From the NCBI GenBank assembly GCA_034432655.1, contig DAOUBP010000038.1:660-64659 (forward strand): a DNA stretch of 64,000 nt, read 5' to 3'. The first letter of the stretch is position 1, and each line of letters begins with the position of its first letter. Shown here piece after piece: positions 14,870 through 43,701 of this stretch. The notes below the pieces were generated by a model, which saw only the letters and a list, made by a program, of their open reading frames with translations, searched no databases and was not told the DNA's origin. The translations under genes were made by a program, and so were the position numbers. The DNA is from Anaerolineae bacterium (GTDB lineage Bacteria; Chloroflexota; Anaerolineae; CG2-30-64-16).

Positions 14870-14907
14870 ATTTCAAGTGTGGCCAACAAGACGATCAAAA
14901 CATCAGG

Positions 14908-15003
14908 CGGGGGCGGATGGGAGTCGAACCCACCTTGGACGCTTCCTAGGCGCCCATCACCGGTTTTGAAGACCGGGGCCGCCACCGGACGACAACCACC
15001 CCC
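14908..15003 (-). tRNA. selC: tRNA-Sec (selenocysteine), anticodon UCA, 96 nt, 8/5 acceptor/T-stem architecture with long variable arm
   Basis: GGGGGTGG-TT-GTCGTCCGGTGGCGGC-C-CCGGT-CUUCAAA-ACCGG-[26-nt variable arm]-GTGGG-TTCGACT-CCCAT-CCGCCCCC-G; aligns block-for-block with E. coli selC (TCGTCTCCGGTG..., CTTCAAA, TTCGACTCC). Confidence 0.85.
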
Positions 15004-35055: not shown

Positions 35056-36831
35056 CTATTCCACCGAGATGATGTAATGATAGTACGGCTGGCCGCCTTC
35101 GACACACTCGATCTCTTGATCGGGATAGAGCTCGCGCAGCTCAGCCTGGAGTGCCTGGGCCTGGGCCGCCGTCACCGGTTCCCCGTAGTACAGGGTGATC
35201 ACCTCCAGCTCGTCCGCGTGCATTTGCTCCAGCAAGGTTTTCACCACGGCTTCGGGGGTGGGCCCTGTGGCGGTGAGCTGATCGTTCAAGAGGCCGATCA
35301 CATCCCCGGCGTGTACCTCGATGCCGTCAAACCGGGCGTCGTGCACGGCGATGGTCACTTCGCCCGTCTGGACGTTATCCAACGCCGAGGTCATCATCGC
35401 GGCATTTTGCTGCAAGTCGGCATGGGGGTTATAGGCCAGCAGCGCGCTGATGCCCTGGGGGATGCTCTTGCTGGGGATGACGGTGACAGTCTTGCCCTCG
35501 GCGGCGGCCAGCACCTGGGCTTGTTGGGCCGCCATGAGAATGTTGCCGTTGTTGGGCAGCAAAAGCACCTCGGACATCGGCAGGCGGTTGATGGCATCCA
35601 GCAGGTCTTGGGTGCTGGGATTCATGGTCTGTCCGCCCGGCACAACGCAATGAGTGCCCAGGCTCAGGAACACCTGGGCCAGGCCGTTGCCGGGCACTAC
35701 GGCGACGATGCCGGGGCCTTCGCCGGCCCCTTCAGTGTTGCACAGCGGTTGTGGCTCACTCTCGGCGACGGCTGGCGCGGCCGACGGGGCCTCTGCCGTC
35801 GCAAAGCGAGGTGGCAGCGGATCATACCCGGCCGGCATCTCGGGGATGTGCATGTCATCCATATTCTCGACCACGACATCGGTCACGAAGCCCAAGCTGA
35901 CGGCGTAGGAGAGCACTTTGCCGGGATCGGGCACATGGACGTGGACCTTGACCAGATTCTGGTCCCCTTCGACCAGGGGACAATCCCCCATCGCGGTGAT
36001 CTGTTCGCGGATGGCAGCCACATCCAGCCGTTCCCCTTCGACCAGGAACTGCACATCGAAGCCATAGACCAGGGGCGGCAACGGACGGCGGCCCTTTACC
36101 GCCGCGCGTGGGGGCGCGGCCGGGACAGCCACGGCCGGCGCGGCCGCTTTTTCGCCGGTGAGCGCGCGGTACATCCCCTCCAGGATGAAGAAGAGGCCCT
36201 TGCCGCCGCTGTCTACCTTACCGGCCTGCTTGAGCACGGGCAGGAGGTTGGGAGTGTTGATGACCGCTTCATCGGCGGCGCGCACGACGCGCTCCAAGAT
36301 GAACCGGATGTCGTCCTCCAGTTGGGCAGCGCTCTCCGCAGCCGCAGCCGCTTCTTTGATCACGGTCAGGATGGTGCCTTCGACCGGCCGGTTTACACCT
36401 TTGTACGCCACCCGGCTCCCTTCGCTCAGGGCCGCGGCCAGGGCCGGACCGGTCAGGGTAACCTGGTCCCCCAGGCTGCGCGCGATGCCGCGCAGGATCT
36501 GCGACAGGATCACGCCAGAGTTGCCGCGCGCACCCATGAGCGCGCCATGGGCGACCGCCCTGGCAACCTCGCTCACGCTGTGGAGGTGTTCATCGGTGAT
36601 CTCCCGACACGCCGACTTCATGGTCAACAGCATATTGGTCCCCGTGTCCCCATCGGGCACGGGGAAGACGTTAAGCGCGTTGACGATTTCGTGATGTTGA
36701 TCCAGCCAGTCCAGTCCGGCCAGGAGCAAATCACGCCACTGGGTGCCGGTCAGGCTCAGGATCGGCCCACCGGCGGGCGCGGGCTGTGGGTTCATAGTAG
36801 TAGAGCCGGTTCGACTTTCTACTGCAGTCAA
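35056..36831 (-). CDS. DAK2 domain fusion protein YloV
   Basis: EIVNALNVFPVPDGDTGTNM, GARGNSGVILSQI; C-terminal DegV-like half. Confidence 0.85.
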   Translation of the reverse strand: MTAVESRTGSTTMNPQPAPAGGPILSLTGTQWRDLLLAGLDWLDQHHEIVNALNVFPVPDGDTGTNMLLTMKSACREITDEHLHSVSEVARAVAHGALMGARGNSGVILSQILRGIARSLGDQVTLTGPALAAALSEGSRVAYKGVNRPVEGTILTVIKEAAAAAESAAQLEDDIRFILERVVRAADEAVINTPNLLPVLKQAGKVDSGGKGLFFILEGMYRALTGEKAAAPAVAVPAAPPRAAVKGRRPLPPLVYGFDVQFLVEGERLDVAAIREQITAMGDCPLVEGDQNLVKVHVHVPDPGKVLSYAVSLGFVTDVVVENMDDMHIPEMPAGYDPLPPRFATAEAPSAAPAVAESEPQPLCNTEGAGEGPGIVAVVPGNGLAQVFLSLGTHCVVPGGQTMNPSTQDLLDAINRLPMSEVLLLPNNGNILMAAQQAQVLAAAEGKTVTVIPSKSIPQGISALLAYNPHADLQQNAAMMTSALDNVQTGEVTIAVHDARFDGIEVHAGDVIGLLNDQLTATGPTPEAVVKTLLEQMHADELEVITLYYGEPVTAAQAQALQAELRELYPDQEIECVEGGQPYYHYIISVE

Positions 36832-36865
36832 CGTTACTTTCCTCCGCTAACAAAACTTCGTCTCT

Positions 36866-37228
36866 TCATTCCTTGTCACCGTTGGGCATTCGCAATCCCT
36901 GGACGTGGACGTTGACCTCAGCGACCGGCAGGCCCAGCGTCTGCTCCAGCGCGTACTTCACGCCGTTCATCACGCCATGCGCCACCTCGGAGATACGCGT
37001 GCCGTACTGGATAATCACATAGAGGTCCACAATCACCTGACCATCCCGCACCTGGACATCTATCCCGCGATGCCATTTGTCGGGCTGCAGCAGGTCGGCC
37101 AGGCCGTCAATCAGGTTCTTGTTGGCCATGCCGACGACGCCGTAACACCGCAGGACCGCTTCGCCCGCGATGGCGGCGATGGCATGGGGTGAGATCTCGA
37201 TTCGCCCTGCTTTCTTCTCTTCAACCAT
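36866..37228 (-). CDS. Asp23/Gls24 family protein
   Basis: RIEISPHAIAAIAGEAVLRCYGVVGM; RBS ggaggag. Confidence 0.75.
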   Translation of the reverse strand: MVEEKKAGRIEISPHAIAAIAGEAVLRCYGVVGMANKNLIDGLADLLQPDKWHRGIDVQVRDGQVIVDLYVIIQYGTRISEVAHGVMNGVKYALEQTLGLPVAEVNVHVQGLRMPNGDKE

Positions 37229-37295
37229 AAAACGACTCCTCCGCAAGGGTACACGGGCCATCACCAACGATGACGTGCTGTTTGCGTCTTTTGGC

Positions 37296-38408: not shown

Positions 38409-39575
38409 TTATGCGTGGCCGGCAATGGGAAAGGTAACGTGAAAGGTGCTGCCCTGGGCCGGCGCGCTCTCAAACCACAGGCGCCCCCCCTGGAGCTCGG
38501 CCAGGGCGCGGGCGATGTAAAGGCCCAGCCCGATGCCGCCGCTCCCCGTCCGGCCCACGTTGCGCGCGCGGAAAAAGGGGTCGAAGACCTGCTTGCGATC
38601 CTCTTCGGCGATGCCGATCCCTTCATCGGTCACGGCCACCTCCAGGAAACCGTCTTCGGCGGCCTTCTTGACTTCGACAATGATGTTTGAACCGGCCGGG
38701 GAGTACTTGCTGGCGTTGCTAAGCAGGTTGCCCACCACCTGACCGGCACGCGCCGGGTCGCAAAGCGCCAGGGGGAGGCCGGTCGGCGCACGCAGGGAGA
38801 GCTGTTGCGCCCGGGCTTCCAGTTGCGGGACCTGTTCGGCGATCACCTCTTCCACCAGCGCGATCAGGTTGGCCGGCTTCAGGGTCACCTCCATGCGGCC
38901 GATTTCGATGCGCGTCAGGTCCAACAGGTCACGGGTGATCTGCAACAGACGATGTGCACTGTTCTCGACGATGCGCAGGTATTCGCGTTGCCGGTCGGTC
39001 AAGGGGCCCGCATCCCCGTCCAACAACATTTCGATGTAGCCGCTGATCGAAGCCAAAGGGGTGCGCAGCTCATGGGCAGCGATGGATACGAAGATGGATT
39101 TGACCTCGTCCAGCCGTTGCAACTCGGCGTTGGCGGCCTCTAACGCCATGTTCTGACGATGAAGTTCATCGCGCAACAGGCGCAACTCGTTGCGCTGCTG
39201 TGTCAGGCGTTGTTCCAGCTCCCCCACCTCGGTGACATCCTGCACCACATGGATCAGCCCGGTGATGTGGCCGGTCTCATCGGTATAGGGCAGGTCAATC
39301 ATGGTGAGATACGCAGTTCTGCCCCCGGGCAAGTCGCGGTTGATGTAAGAAAGCTGGAAGCGGGGCAGCTCGCCGGTCAACAGGTCGGCCAGCACTTCCT
39401 CGTTGCCGATCAGTTCGGGCACGACCTCAGTCAACGGGCGGCCCATCCAACTTTTGAGCCAGGTTTGCAGGCCGTTGCTGGCTCCACTGACCTCGATGAC
39501 ATTCAGATCCCGATCGGTGATGGCATAAGAGATGCGACGATCGTGCAGGATGGTTTGGGCGACCCGTTGCTTCAT
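38409..39575 (-). CDS. PAS-domain sensor histidine kinase
   Basis: HELRTPLASISGYIEML (H-box), HATPase GGIGLGLYIA. Confidence 0.85.
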   Translation of the reverse strand: MKQRVAQTILHDRRISYAITDRDLNVIEVSGASNGLQTWLKSWMGRPLTEVVPELIGNEEVLADLLTGELPRFQLSYINRDLPGGRTAYLTMIDLPYTDETGHITGLIHVVQDVTEVGELEQRLTQQRNELRLLRDELHRQNMALEAANAELQRLDEVKSIFVSIAAHELRTPLASISGYIEMLLDGDAGPLTDRQREYLRIVENSAHRLLQITRDLLDLTRIEIGRMEVTLKPANLIALVEEVIAEQVPQLEARAQQLSLRAPTGLPLALCDPARAGQVVGNLLSNASKYSPAGSNIIVEVKKAAEDGFLEVAVTDEGIGIAEEDRKQVFDPFFRARNVGRTGSGGIGLGLYIARALAELQGGRLWFESAPAQGSTFHVTFPIAGHA

Positions 39576-39603
39576 GAGCGCGCTCCAGGTAAGGCGACCG
39601 TAG

Positions 39604-40119
39604 TCAAAGGATCAGGAGCTGGCCGAGATGGCGAAAGACAGCTTCTACGTTGGCTCCTGTTTTGGCGCTGGTAAGATAGTAGGGTGCGTGGAGCGCTGCT
39701 GCCCGGCCGGCGATCTCTTCGTCCGCCACCTGACGTTGCTCTCGCAGGTCTTCTTTGTTGCCGGCGATAATCAGCCGGGCGCCGGGGTTGATCCGCTGCA
39801 GTTCGGCCGCGTAGCACGGGACACTGTCCAGGCTGGCCGGCCGGGTCAAATCGCACACGATAATAGCGCCGGCTGCTCCGCGCAGATAGCTGGCCCGTAT
39901 CACGTCATATTCCTCACTGCCTGCCAGGTCCCACAAGATCAGCGTGAGTTCCACCAGGTCACCGTTGCGCGGGAGGACGATCACTTTGCGACTGACCTTA
40001 ACCCCGATCGTGCTGAGGTATTTGTCGTCGAACAGATTGTAGACGAAGCGACGCACCAGGCTGGTTTTGCCCACCGCGTAATCGCCCAATAAGCAGACTT
40101 TCTTGCTTAGCGAGATCAA
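39604..40119 (-). CDS. Ras-superfamily small GTPase (MglA/Rup-like)
   Basis: G1 GDYAVGKT, G3 WDLAGSEEY, G4 AGNKEDL, G5 TSAK. Confidence 0.8.
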   Translation of the reverse strand: MISLSKKVCLLGDYAVGKTSLVRRFVYNLFDDKYLSTIGVKVSRKVIVLPRNGDLVELTLILWDLAGSEEYDVIRASYLRGAAGAIIVCDLTRPASLDSVPCYAAELQRINPGARLIIAGNKEDLREQRQVADEEIAGRAAALHAPYYLTSAKTGANVEAVFRHLGQLLIL

Positions 40120-40156
40120 AGTTGTGCGTCCCTTCTTGTCTGGCCGGCCGCCACCG

Positions 40157-41590
40157 TCACGGTGCAGGGACGACCGGCACGCTCAGGAGGTCTCCCTCCA
40201 GGCCGACTAACATCGCCGCCACCCAGCCGATCCTGCCATCCTGCGTGCAACACACTTGCCACCAGCCGCCCGTTGCGTTGCGGCCGACAACGGTCAGGAC
40301 CCGGCCGCTCTCCGCCACTTCCCACACCGGATAGTTCAGCCCTGGCCCGGCCCGGATGTTGACGCCCCGCTCCCCCACCCTGACAATGGGTGTCGGGGCC
40401 GGAGTGACGGTGGCCGTCACGGTGACCGTCGGCGTCGGGGTGGCGGTCGGCGTCGGGGTGGGCGTGGCCGTCGCTGTTGCGGTGGCCGTCGGCGTCGCAG
40501 TCGTGGTGGCCGTCGCTGTTGCGGTGGCCGTCGGCCCTGGGGTCGCAGTGACAACAACCAGGATAGTGGTCACCGGCCGGTTCAGCGCGTTGCGCAGCGC
40601 CAATGTCCCGCCGATGCACGCGGCCAACAGGCACAGGACCAACAGGCCACCGAGTGCCGCCACAATGCGCCGCTGGCCGGGGCTCAACCCCTTGTCCGGC
40701 GCGCTGGCCCGGTCCGGAGAGAGTGCCAGCAAAGCAGATAGATCGCGCTGCGCGTCTGCGAAACGGGTCGCGTCGCCGTCGAAGCGCACCAGCGCGGTGT
40801 GATAGCCATTTTCGATGGCGATGATGCGCTCGCGCATGGCCGCCCGGAAGCCCGGCGGCTCGATCCCATCCACCACGACCGCGAGATAGGCATGTCGGGT
40901 CGCTTCGATCAGGATGCGCCGGGTGCCGTACTGGATCTCGTCCAGCTGGCCCTCCTTGCCCCGACCGAAAGCGTCCTGGGCAAAATCGCGGATCGCGGTC
41001 AGCATGCCGCTGATCAGATCGGCCTGATCGGCAATTTCTGGTTCGTTGGAAAGGTGCAACAGCAGCAGGCCGGTCTCACGGTGGATCAGGAACAGCTCCG
41101 CCACCCGGAACGGCAGCGCCTCGCGCAGGGCCAATGCCTCATCCGGGATGCCGGCCAGCCGGCCCCGCAGCCGCCGCCAGACCGACTTCAGGTCCAGGGA
41201 GGTGCGCATCCGGGTGTCAATGGCCCGGGCCAGGTCGCGGATCGCCTCGGCGACCGCGCGGCCGATGAGCTGGCCGATGATCGGGTAGAGCGCCTCGATC
41301 ATCTCATCGCGGCCTTCCTGGATTTTGTGCCGGATGATGTCACCCATCAAGGGCGAAATGGCGGCCACCAGGCGCTGTGGGTCACCGGTGCGATGCTCCA
41401 GCTCGGTCACCCGCGCGGCGAGCTGGTCGGCGCGCGCGCGGTCCGGCGCCGCGAGAATGCGGCGTAACTCCTCCAGGGCCGGGTCAACTCCCTGGGCGTT
41501 CGCCACGGCCTCGCCCTGGCCAGGCAACAGCCCAGGCCCCATCGGCGCCCGCGATTCGGCGCAGTCCGCCGAGGCCGGTTGATCGTCCAT
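40157..41590 (-). CDS. membrane protein: cytoplasmic roadblock/LC7-like domain, one TM, Thr/Pro/Ala-rich linker, C-terminal SH3b domain
   Basis: LFLIHRETGLLLLHLS...RRILIEATRHAYLAVVVDG (roadblock-like strands); TM IVAALGGLLVLCLLAACIGGTLAL; (TA)n(TP)n linker; SH3b VRVGERGVNIRAGPGLNYPVWEV...GWWQV. Confidence 0.6.
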   Translation of the reverse strand: MDDQPASADCAESRAPMGPGLLPGQGEAVANAQGVDPALEELRRILAAPDRARADQLAARVTELEHRTGDPQRLVAAISPLMGDIIRHKIQEGRDEMIEALYPIIGQLIGRAVAEAIRDLARAIDTRMRTSLDLKSVWRRLRGRLAGIPDEALALREALPFRVAELFLIHRETGLLLLHLSNEPEIADQADLISGMLTAIRDFAQDAFGRGKEGQLDEIQYGTRRILIEATRHAYLAVVVDGIEPPGFRAAMRERIIAIENGYHTALVRFDGDATRFADAQRDLSALLALSPDRASAPDKGLSPGQRRIVAALGGLLVLCLLAACIGGTLALRNALNRPVTTILVVVTATPGPTATATATATTTATPTATATATATPTPTPTATPTPTVTVTATVTPAPTPIVRVGERGVNIRAGPGLNYPVWEVAESGRVLTVVGRNATGGWWQVCCTQDGRIGWVAAMLVGLEGDLLSVPVVPAP

Positions 41591-41598
41591 AGCTGTGA

Positions 41599-42222
41599 TC
41601 AGCCGGGCTGGTCCAGGCCCTGCAGCAGGTCCGCCAGGGAGCCGCCGGCCTTCACATGGTTGCCCAGCTCAATGAACAGGTCGCCCAGCATGGTCCGATC
41701 GGCCTTTTCGTCGGTGAGCCGTTGGGCGATCATCCGCAGTTCGTCGCGCAGCTCAGCGTCCGCTTTGCGCAGTTCCAGGCGCAGGTTTTGCAGCGCGGTC
41801 TCGTGGGCGGCTGCCTGGTCCGTCAGCCCGGTGTCCAGACGGCCGATCTCGGCCTTCAGCGCTGCCTGCAGCTCGCTGTCCGCCTGTTGCAACTCCTGGC
41901 GCAGGTTCTTCATGCCGGTGGTGTGGGCGGCATCCTGCTCGGCCAGTTGGGCGGTCAGCCGGCCGGTTTCTGCTTTCAGAGCGGTTTTCAATTCATCATC
42001 GGCCTGGCGCAGCTCCTGGCGCAGGGCTTGCAGATTGCGGCTTTGGGCAGCGTCCCGAGCGGTGAGCTGTTCGCTCAGGCGGTCCAGTTCTTGTTGGAGC
42101 CGGCCGATGTCGCGCATGACCGCCTCAAAGCGTTGCTCGTAATCGCGCATCTTCGGGCCAAAGATGATGTCGCGAATCCGCTCGACCGATTCCGTGCCTG
42201 TGATTTGCTCTTTGTCCGCCAT
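41599..42222 (-). CDS. coiled-coil repeat protein (4 x ~30-aa LQxLRQELxxADxELxxALKAE repeats)
   Basis: internal direct protein repeats visible. Confidence 0.55.
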   Translation of the reverse strand: MADKEQITGTESVERIRDIIFGPKMRDYEQRFEAVMRDIGRLQQELDRLSEQLTARDAAQSRNLQALRQELRQADDELKTALKAETGRLTAQLAEQDAAHTTGMKNLRQELQQADSELQAALKAEIGRLDTGLTDQAAAHETALQNLRLELRKADAELRDELRMIAQRLTDEKADRTMLGDLFIELGNHVKAGGSLADLLQGLDQPG

Positions 42223-42291
42223 TCAACCCTCCTGAAGGATAGCGCTAAAGGATTACAGTGATGATTACAAGACAAAAAGGCCAGGGCGCGA

Positions 42292-43017
42292 TCAGCGCCT
42301 GGCCGGGAAGCTATAGCCCAGCCCGCGTTCAGTGAGGATATAAACCGGCTGGGCGGGGATCGGCTCGATCTTCTGGCGCAGCCGGTGCACGTGGACGCGC
42401 AGGGTGTCCTCGAACACCTCTTCCATCGGCCACAGCCGACGAAGCAAGAAGTCGGTGGTGACGGTGCGTCCGGCGTTGCGCATCAACAGATAGAGCAGCT
42501 TGGTCTCGGTGGGGGTGAGCGACACCGGCTGGCCTGCGACGAACACCCGTTGGTGGGGGAAGTCCACCGTCAGGCGGTCGTCCACTTTGATCAGCACATC
42601 CAGGGTGTAGGCGAAGTCTCCGATGCGCCGGAGCACACGCTGCACGCGGGCCACCAGCTCGCGCGGGCTGAACGGCTTGACCACATAGTCCTCGGCATAG
42701 CGGTTGATGCCCTGGATGATCGTCTCTTCTTCATCCACCGCGCTCAGCATGATGATGGGCAGGTCGCTGAACTGCTGGACCGCCTGGCAGAACTCGAAAC
42801 CGGACATCCCGGGCAGGTTGATGTCCACGATGGCCAGGTGGGGCATGCCGCGACGCTGGATGATATCCAGCGCCTGGGGGCCGCTGCCGGCGGTGAACAC
42901 CTCGTAGCCGGCGTTTTCCAGCTTGTCTTTCACCAGGCGCTGGATGGCGGGGTCATCGTCAACCACCAGGATGCGTTGCGCTGCCGGCGCAGTGCCGGGC
43001 AGAGGGGCATCGGACAT
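42292..43017 (-). CDS. OmpR-family response regulator
   Basis: ILVVDDDPAIQ, receiver Asp, winged-helix C-term LGYSF. Confidence 0.85.
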   Translation of the reverse strand: MSDAPLPGTAPAAQRILVVDDDPAIQRLVKDKLENAGYEVFTAGSGPQALDIIQRRGMPHLAIVDINLPGMSGFEFCQAVQQFSDLPIIMLSAVDEEETIIQGINRYAEDYVVKPFSPRELVARVQRVLRRIGDFAYTLDVLIKVDDRLTVDFPHQRVFVAGQPVSLTPTETKLLYLLMRNAGRTVTTDFLLRRLWPMEEVFEDTLRVHVHRLRQKIEPIPAQPVYILTERGLGYSFPARR

Positions 43018-43020
43018 GGC

Positions 43021-43623
43021 TTATCCTGCTTTTGCCAGATTGGCGGCCACGAAATCCCAGTTGACCAGGTGATCCAGAAACGCCTGGACGAAATCGGGCC
43101 GTCGGTTCTGGTAATCCAGATAATAAGCGTGCTCCCACACATCCACGGTGAGCAAGGCGACTTTGCCCTGGGTCATGGGGGTCTCGGCGTTGGGCGTGCT
43201 CATGATGCTGAGCCGGTCGCCGTCCAGCACCAGCCAGCCCCAGCCGCTGCCGAAGCGCCCCACCGCAGCGGCCTTAAACTGCTCGGCGAACTTCTCGTAG
43301 CTCCCGAAAGCGGCTTCAATCCTGGCCGCCAGTTCGCCCGTGGGCCGGCCACCGCCGCCCGGCTTCATGCAGTGCCAGAAGAAGGTGTGGTTCCACACCT
43401 GGGCCGCGTTGTTGAAGAAGCCGGCTTTTGTCGGATCGCCGGCCGTGGCCAGGATGATTTCCTCCAGGGTCGCATGTTCGTAGGGGCTGCCGGGCAGCAG
43501 CTTATTCAGGTTGTCCACGTAGGCCTTGTGATGCTTGCCGTGATGAAAGCTGAAGGTGCGGGCCGTGTAGTACGGCTCCAACGCGTCGTCGGAATACGGC
43601 AGAGGGGGTAGCTCGAAAGCCAT
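43021..43623 (-). CDS. Fe/Mn superoxide dismutase
   Basis: FHHGKHH, DVWEHAYYLDYQNRR; RBS aaaggag. Confidence 0.9.
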   Translation of the reverse strand: MAFELPPLPYSDDALEPYYTARTFSFHHGKHHKAYVDNLNKLLPGSPYEHATLEEIILATAGDPTKAGFFNNAAQVWNHTFFWHCMKPGGGGRPTGELAARIEAAFGSYEKFAEQFKAAAVGRFGSGWGWLVLDGDRLSIMSTPNAETPMTQGKVALLTVDVWEHAYYLDYQNRRPDFVQAFLDHLVNWDFVAANLAKAG

Positions 43624-43701
43624 GGCAGTCTGCTCCTTTCTTCTTATAGAAGTGAGATATCGAACGGTGCCGCAGCGCACGTCGGTCAAAACCTGTGAGC
43701 T

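Follow-up and report, generated by a model that had tools for sequence, protein, structure and literature searches.

The window analysed here, 64,000 nt of a contig from an Anaerolineae bacterium (DAOUBP010000038.1, assembly GCA_034432655.1), carries at 38409-43017 five open reading frames (ORFs) on the minus strand, which encode, from 5' to 3', an OmpR-family response regulator, a coiled-coil protein, a single-pass membrane protein, a small Ras-superfamily GTPase and a histidine kinase. We conclude that this locus is probably a Group 1 Rup module of Chloroflexota (Anaerolineae type), equipped with a complete two-component output. An initial annotation, made from the letters alone, had taken the arrangement to be undescribed; it matches the Group 1 Rup neighbourhood reported by Wuichet & Søgaard-Andersen (PMC4316618), whose members include Chloroflexus and Roseiflexus.

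That paper split the prokaryotic small Ras-like GTPases into the MglA family, which has among other features an insertion between G1 and G2, and the Rup family, and found Group 1 Rup genes together with three further genes. The first, DUFY, encodes a cytoplasmic coiled-coil protein; the second, DUFX, combines a conserved domain whose role is not known with a transmembrane helix and a peptidoglycan-binding C-terminus, often OmpA; the third encodes an output protein, as a rule of the GGDEF/EAL or the histidine kinase type, with an invariant Gln in its N-terminal region. Group 1 Rup proteins themselves are single-domain GTPases whose G1-G5 motifs resemble those of eukaryotes, the Asp of G3 included. 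The output Gln was stressed because Group 1 Rup proteins lack the Gln of the G3 motif, and the idea was put forward that the output N-domain supplies it in trans, which is possible for the present module too. All four components have counterparts in the window: DUFY, DUFX, a GTPase without the G3 Gln and a Gln-bearing output. The differences are of detail. The window DUFX ends in an SH3b domain on a Thr/Pro linker, not in OmpA, and an OmpR-type regulator gene lies next to the module. With its gene order DUFY>DUFX>Rup the locus agrees with cyanobacteria (DUFY>DUFX:OmpA>Rup in the cyanobacterial and proteobacterial entries of Table S2 of PMC4316618) and departs from the Rup>DUFY>DUFX order listed there for Chloroflexus and Roseiflexus (members Caur_1236, Cagg_2203 and Rcas_3601). 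DUFX, of unknown function in that description, has a predicted longin/roadblock fold here, and relatives of the locus add class III cyclase, SpoIIE, HD_5 and sigma54-activator outputs. PMC4316618 makes no explicit mention of an SH3b domain where OmpA would be, of an OmpR regulator next to the module or of a fold for DUFX. We regard the SH3b ectodomain, the neighbouring regulator and the additional outputs as variations on a known module, and since the locus is one of thousands of copies it adds little as a new arrangement. Probably the same set of genes is mentioned in passing in a Thiomargarita preprint. In the open-access literature we found no paper on the published Group 1 Rup locus tags, and none assigning a fold to DUFX, which is no proof of absence.

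The equation of the 477-residue membrane protein with DUFX comes from profile searches. Its sole Pfam match is SH3_3 (1.5e-8, residues 409-459), and in its first 400 residues no Pfam or NCBIfam family reaches the cut-off. A profile of the cytoplasmic part (alignment A3) was searched against 1.84 billion cluster representatives (50%-identity clusters). This gave 5,666 clusters at E<=1e-3, of which 1,988 reach E<=1e-30; among the 82 matches with E<1e-70, 25 carry SH3_3, 24 OmpA and 14 BON ectodomains. Since OmpA-bearing proteins are matched at this level, the 477-residue protein shares a family with the published DUFX:OmpA proteins and, by this similarity, can be equated with the DUFX of Group 1 Rup loci. 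No Pfam model covers this very large family. Homologs of the 477-residue protein number more than 766, mostly from Chloroflexota metagenome-assembled genomes. One close homolog (P0064) is labelled 'Nitrososphaerales archaeon', probably a binning error because all other named matches are Chloroflexota. The cytoplasmic domain also occurs in very long proteins, P0250 (2171 aa) and P0265 (1159 aa, with 12 matching stretches).

The 207-residue coiled-coil protein likewise has no Pfam or NCBIfam family above cut-off. Self-comparison revealed a period of 40 residues, with three full copies and one partial copy flanked by a conserved N-end (RDIIFG..M..YE.RF) and a conserved C-end; the repeat noticed at first is thus real, although it is not fourfold. 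Homologs (L001-L079) keep both ends but differ in length, clustering near 133, 207 and 247 aa; the number of repeats appears to vary, as in a spacer of adjustable length. As the profile of this protein also matches the short proteins encoded upstream of OmpA-type DUFX genes (E 1e-16 to 1e-21), it corresponds, on sequence grounds, to DUFY.

To see how far the gene set is kept, we used a synteny scan with one genome per GTDB species, which returned at least 303 loci with a relative, of which 79 were kept. All 79 are from Chloroflexota and belong to Anaerolineae, Caldilineae and Chloroflexia; Roseiflexus and Ca. Amarolinea are among them. The genes for the coiled-coil protein, the membrane protein, the GTPase and the N-terminal domain of the kinase lie within 4.5 kb of each other in 61 of them, and most of the loci without the full four-gene set are cut by contig ends. 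The commonest orders are regulator>coiled-coil>membrane protein>GTPase>kinase (21 loci, plus 8 preceded by a superoxide dismutase (SOD) gene) and the same without the regulator (17 loci). In about 10 loci, among them Roseiflexus (L070) and Chloroflexaceae (L079), the order is GTPase>coiled-coil>membrane protein>output, and these two agree with Table S2 of PMC4316618. The coiled-coil gene adjoins the membrane-protein gene in about 70 loci, the kinase gene adjoins the GTPase gene in most, and a homolog of the regulator (48-83% identity) is found directly upstream of the coiled-coil gene in 34. DUFY, DUFX, a Rab-like GTPase without the catalytic Gln and an output protein with the N-domain are encoded together across hundreds of genomes. 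Recurrence in 61 of 79 related loci puts the arrangement far beyond chance, and both the proposed conservation of the gene neighbourhood and the functional coupling of the genes are borne out by it.

We also considered that an ordinary two-component system might simply sit beside an unrelated pair of GTPase and membrane-protein genes. Two-component genes are abundant in these genomes, with others elsewhere in the window, and in over half of the related loci the regulator is not beside the module. The kinase N-domain nevertheless keeps company with the GTPase, DUFX and DUFY in the 61 loci just described; it occurs in module context with six output types, also in distant OmpA-type loci; and the five window genes are separated by gaps of 8-69 nt with no coding-strand terminator-like site. 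With synteny conserved in this way chance adjacency is excluded, and we give it next to no weight.

The kinase (PAS_4 4.5e-6, HisKA 6e-21, HATPase_c 3e-28 in Pfam) consists of a family-specific PAS-like N-domain, a signalling helix, HisKA and HATPase_c; it is soluble, having no hydrophobic segment, and ends in ...FPIAGHA. In the more distantly related loci the match is confined to its first 146 residues. We aligned these 146 residues with those of 79 module neighbours (80 sequences in total) and found Y17, G45, E54, G57, R80, Y89, D113, Q122, Q126 and N129 to be near-invariant. Gln122 and Gln126 are each present in 77 of the 80 sequences, and either could be the invariant Gln of the published outputs. 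The motif reads D113-V-T ... Q122 ... Q126-x-R-N-E-L: judged from the alignment, the PAS-like domain ends in the usual D-V-T and is followed by LEQ...QxRNEL in the helix that leads toward the phospho-accepting His.

What follows this N-domain is exchangeable. Among 34 sampled proteins that carry it, 16 are class III nucleotide cyclases, 13 have HisKA/HATPase, 2 GGDEF, 2 SpoIIE and 1 HD_5. In addition, two loci of OmpA/BON type from unrelated metagenomes (L081 and L083) have the order short coiled-coil>DUFX:BON:OmpA>Ras GTPase>sigma54 activator. The activators (8315-9697 in L081, 8327-9706 in L083) consist of AAA+ and HTH_8 without a receiver domain; over their first 140 residues they are matched by the profile of the kinase N-domain (E 1e-31), with both Gln residues kept. 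This output type is not in the 2014 description. Two or three tandem output genes share the N-domain in L017, L022, L052, L055, L073, L074, L077 and L078, and one GTPase module may therefore feed several outputs. A swap of catalytic domains behind a constant N-domain is the pattern typical of an input domain, which argues for a flow of information out of the GTPase module into the output and not in reverse. Because it is joined to at least six output types, the PAS-like domain with its conserved Gln residues is a likely docking site for the GTPase.

The opposite direction was weighed against these data. In this case the PAS kinase would sense a cytoplasmic cue and control the GTPase, which would then work together with DUFX and DUFY on the envelope, where it might for instance position cell-wall enzymes. 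The proposal has a precedent in the conservon, whose GTPase was suggested to be the output of a kinase/roadblock/GTPase complex (PMC4316618); moreover, PAS domains often bind small ligands, and DUFX has access to the cell wall by way of SH3b, OmpA or BON. However, the proteins that share the N-domain (cyclases, GGDEF, SpoIIE and HD_5 proteins, and sigma54 activators without receivers) are enzymes and transcription factors, plausible as outputs but not as common regulators of one GTPase, and in about half of the loci the kinase comes with an OmpR-type regulator. The hallmarks of a conservon are also missing. Like conservons (CvnA-D) and the mycobacterial Mfp system, for which a membrane-associated, G-protein-like signalling complex has been proposed, the locus is an operon of a histidine kinase, a protein of predicted roadblock-type fold and a small GTPase. 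A conservon, however, has a membrane-sensor kinase with a C-terminal LPxR, a soluble Robl_LC7 protein, DUF742 and an MglA Group 2 GTPase, and no response regulator. The window locus has a soluble kinase without LPxR, no Pfam match to Robl_LC7 or DUF742, the fold-bearing protein in the membrane, a coiled-coil partner and an adjacent regulator. Altogether, reverse flow seems unlikely to us, and we retain the reading as a Group 1 Rup module that acts on its output.

The GTPase itself (Pfam Ras 9.8e-38) has the motifs G1 GDYAVGKT, G2 T37, G3 WDLAGSE, G4 NKED and G5 SAK. The claim that all of G1-G5 are present needs one correction: G1, G2, G4 and G5 are canonical, but G3 lacks the catalytic Gln and has Ser68 instead. 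GDYAVGKT, T37, WDLAG, NKED and SAK are conserved in 72 homologs, in which the G3 Asp is invariant. The position equivalent to Gln61 is Ser in 48, Gly in 16, Glu in 5 and Thr in 2 (71 of the 72), while residue 14, equivalent to Gly12 of Ras, is Tyr in the window protein and Phe or Tyr in 69, mostly Phe. The nearest solved relatives are Rab-type (Ypt6/Rab6 at 7e-27, Rab22, Rab21, Sec4, Rab1 and a Thorarchaeota Rab); the best 60 listed are Rab-type, nearly all eukaryotic, with no MglA among them. By sequence, then, the protein is Rab-like and not MglA-like. It has no lipid-anchor motif, and its localisation at the membrane would therefore need a partner. The GTPases of the two OmpA/BON-type loci (L081 7774-8310 and L083 7820-8323) have an unusual switch II for a Ras-like protein: G3 reads WDIAHIE or WDLAQIE, with the Gly of DxxG replaced by His or Gln and Ile at the Gln61 position.

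A candidate for such a partner is DUFX. An AlphaFold model of the 477-residue protein, built with 45 homologs, has a mean predicted local distance difference test (pLDDT) score of 75.8, and exceeds 90 over much of the folded domains. The N-terminal part forms two helices, 37-68 and 71-130 (DSSP), with the stretch EALYPIIGQLI.RAV.EAIRDLAR.ID.RMR; P80, R87, E99, P103, R111, E115, L120, R122 and D125 are invariant in the 45 homologs. Residues ~148-296 have the topology alpha-beta-beta-alpha-beta-beta-beta-alpha(-alpha) in the model, with a five-stranded antiparallel sheet and flanking helices. Members of the longin/roadblock superfamily are built as beta-beta-alpha-beta-beta-beta-alpha-alpha or alpha-beta-beta-alpha-beta-beta-beta, and theirs is the fold of the small-GTPase platforms MglB, Ragulator, Mon1-Ccz1 and TRAPP. 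We therefore assign this domain, as a prediction, to the longin/roadblock superfamily. Among its structural matches longin domains outscore roadblock domains. A roadblock-like cytoplasmic domain had been proposed at residues 60-230: the model agrees at the level of the superfamily, but it places the domain further downstream and closest to longins. The following helix (304-337) has the hydrophobic core IVAALGGLLVLCLLAACIGGTLAL and is preceded by QRR; since there is also no N-terminal signal peptide, we infer that the N-terminus is inside and the C-terminus outside. The proposed Thr/Pro-rich stalk and extracellular SH3b domain both found support. The linker is disordered (pLDDT <50 at residues 344-393) and is encoded by DNA with 12- and 18-nt periodic repeats (40389-40550). 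The SH3 barrel (residues 402-465, pLDDT 92-96) has as its structural matches the SH3b domains of endolysins and muramidases, e.g. 4krt, 8b2g and 2krs, and is presumed to bind the cell wall.

With both proteins described, the polarity- or motility-switch reading of the initial annotation can be judged. In that reading the roadblock-like domain would be a GTPase-activating protein (GAP) acting on an MglA-like GTPase and would set cell polarity; the two-component system would be an accessory. The locus does resemble MglA-MglB of Myxococcus xanthus and Thermus thermophilus in that a small GTPase gene lies beside that of a partner with a roadblock-superfamily fold and in its two-component links. 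The GTPase, however, belongs to another family: its G3, DLAGSE, keeps the Asp and has no Gln, whereas that of MglA (TVPGQ or GTPGQ; PMC4316618) has no Asp and an intrinsic Gln, and the best 60 solved relatives listed point to Rab. The partner differs as well, being membrane-anchored, more longin-like than roadblock-like in its structural matches and without detectable Robl_LC7 sequence similarity in Pfam. No stand-alone MglB recognisable as Roadblock/LC7 (PF03259) is present at the locus, and no Rup gene was coupled to an MglB homolog in PMC4316618. Finally, the fourth gene encodes an output with exchangeable catalytic domains, and nothing ties the locus to motility. We thus regard an MglA/MglB-type switch as very improbable.

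If the locus is a Group 1 Rup module, the following mechanism can be envisaged. DUFX would be anchored to the cell wall via SH3b, and its helical stalk would pair with the coiled-coil protein DUFY. Its longin-like domain, probably a dimer as in other members of the fold, would bind the GTPase at the membrane and, depending on the condition of the envelope, set its availability or nucleotide state, acting as an exchange factor, a GAP-like positioner or a plain anchor. In one nucleotide state the GTPase would dock at the kinase's Q122/Q126 motif, on the PAS-like N-domain and the signalling helix, and switch kinase activity, and the OmpR-type regulator, once phosphorylated, would alter transcription. 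In this scheme DUFX, having the predicted fold of small-GTPase platforms, is a candidate regulator of the GTPase. That it is a membrane-anchored, longin-type platform directly controlling the Rab-like GTPase we put forward as a tentative proposal, with clearly less confidence than the assignment of the locus. The fold prediction suggests that a longin/roadblock partner of Rup existed but was too divergent for detection by sequence. Its likeness to eukaryotic Mon1-Ccz1, TRAPP, DENN and Ragulator-Rag and to their Asgard counterparts is one of predicted fold only, with 6-13% identity; unlike these, the bacterial domain is fused to a transmembrane helix and a cell-wall-binding ectodomain and would signal to bacterial outputs.

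Several observations speak against our interpretation. The fold of DUFX depends on a single AlphaFold model: the protein has no match to Longin or Robl_LC7 in Pfam, and a profile search of Protein Data Bank sequences gave nothing relevant at E<=10. The residues that are invariant in the wide DUFX family are mostly Gly, Pro and hydrophobic ones plus one Glu, with no catalytic Arg, Gln or Asn evident among them; as these invariants look mainly structural, there is no evidence that DUFX supplies a catalytic residue. The GTPase raises a further difficulty. By analogy with Ras biochemistry, Phe or Tyr at the Gly12 position and the lack of Gln61 predict that both intrinsic and arginine-finger-dependent GTP hydrolysis are very low, so that the protein may hydrolyse GTP very slowly and may not cycle as a classical switch. 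Furthermore, the regulator gene adjoins the module in under half of the loci. Finally, no Rup protein had been characterised at the time of PMC4316618, and we found no later characterisation in the open-access literature.

The features of the locus are collected in the following table.

Table. Features of the putative Group 1 Rup locus and of the gene upstream of it (positions in the window)
Feature	Position	Strand	Basis
OmpR-family response regulator, 241 aa	42292-43017	-	Pfam Response_reg + Trans_reg_C
Cytoplasmic coiled-coil protein (putative DUFY), 207 aa	41599-42222	-	40-aa repeat
Single-pass membrane protein (putative DUFX), 477 aa	40157-41590	-	SH3_3 at C-end + AlphaFold model
DUFX residues 37-130, two long conserved cytoplasmic helices	41201-41482	-	DSSP of model
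DUFX residues ~148-296, predicted longin/roadblock-superfamily domain	40703-41149	-	AlphaFold model
DUFX transmembrane helix, residues ~304-337	40580-40681	-	Model helix + hydrophobic stretch in sequence
DUFX Thr/Pro/Ala-rich disordered linker, predicted outside the membrane	40391-40573	-	Low pLDDT
DUFX predicted extracytoplasmic SH3b domain	40196-40387	-	Pfam SH3_3, model, structural matches
Small Ras-superfamily GTPase, probable Group 1 Rup type, Rab-like, 171 aa	39604-40119	-	Pfam Ras, motifs
Soluble histidine kinase, 388 aa	38409-39575	-	PAS_4, HisKA, HATPase_c
Kinase residues 1-146, Rup-associated PAS_4-like input domain (predicted) + linker	39138-39575	-	Alignment
Fe/Mn superoxide-dismutase-like gene, module membership doubtful	43021-43626	-	ORF

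Five genes on one strand had been recognised from the start, as had the OmpR-type regulator and the PAS histidine kinase at the two ends; only the gaps, given as 9-70 nt, had to be revised, and measure 69, 8, 37 and 28 nt from regulator to kinase. A terminator scan found no coding-strand terminator-like site between the five genes. The regulator, with a receiver and a winged-helix DNA-binding domain (Response_reg 1.1e-28, Trans_reg_C 3.5e-24), misses the cut-off of every NCBIfam equivalog (the best, RpaB, scores 191 bits where 330 are required), and is presumed to be the partner of the module's kinase.

The SOD-like ORF upstream spans 43021-43689 on the minus strand, with a likely start at Met22 (43626), and a divergent intergenic region lies upstream of this gene. 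Since its stop codon is only 3 nt before the start of the regulator gene, the transcription unit could begin there and comprise six genes; a promoter and terminator scan of the junction showed neither a minus-strand promoter-like nor a credible terminator-like site. As a part of the module the SOD-like gene was rejected, its adjacency to the regulator gene being confined to the 9 closest loci, all of Anaerolineae. The one promoter-like site (38393-38365) follows the kinase gene and precedes the next gene, rpe, and the scan is uninformative on the ends of the operon.

The G+C content of the region (61-67%) is unremarkable, and its plus-strand ORFs are shadow frames of G+C-rich sequence. Rfam and repeat scans of the region detected no RNA element and no mobile-element signature, only the periodic DNA that encodes the linker. 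No second copy of the module is present in the 64-kb window. The sole RNA gene found in the window encodes a selenocysteine tRNA (14906-15003, minus strand; ARAGORN, and Rfam tRNA-Sec with 71.9 bits). An ordinary fatty-acid kinase cluster lies downstream of rpe, at 35056-37267 on the minus strand, with Asp23-like and FakA/Dak2-like genes; in the matching contig L080, DegV comes next. Relatives do not keep this cluster beside the module.

No bacterial proteins are closer to eukaryotic Rab, Ras, Rho and Ran than the Rup GTPases, and Group 1 Rup has been proposed as the bacterial source of these families (PMC4316618). If the platform reading of DUFX is true, Group 1 Rup GTPases too are partnered with a longin/roadblock protein, the Rab/longin partnership of eukaryotic trafficking is present in a very large bacterial family, and the partner fold could have travelled with the GTPase. 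Through the module, as a one-pass transmembrane relay, kinases, cyclases, cyclic di-GMP enzymes and sigma54 activators would then receive signals from the cell wall. Should the interactions hold, the module would join MglAB and the conservon as a third, widespread type of bacterial G-protein signalling, and would link the cell wall to transcription and second messengers.

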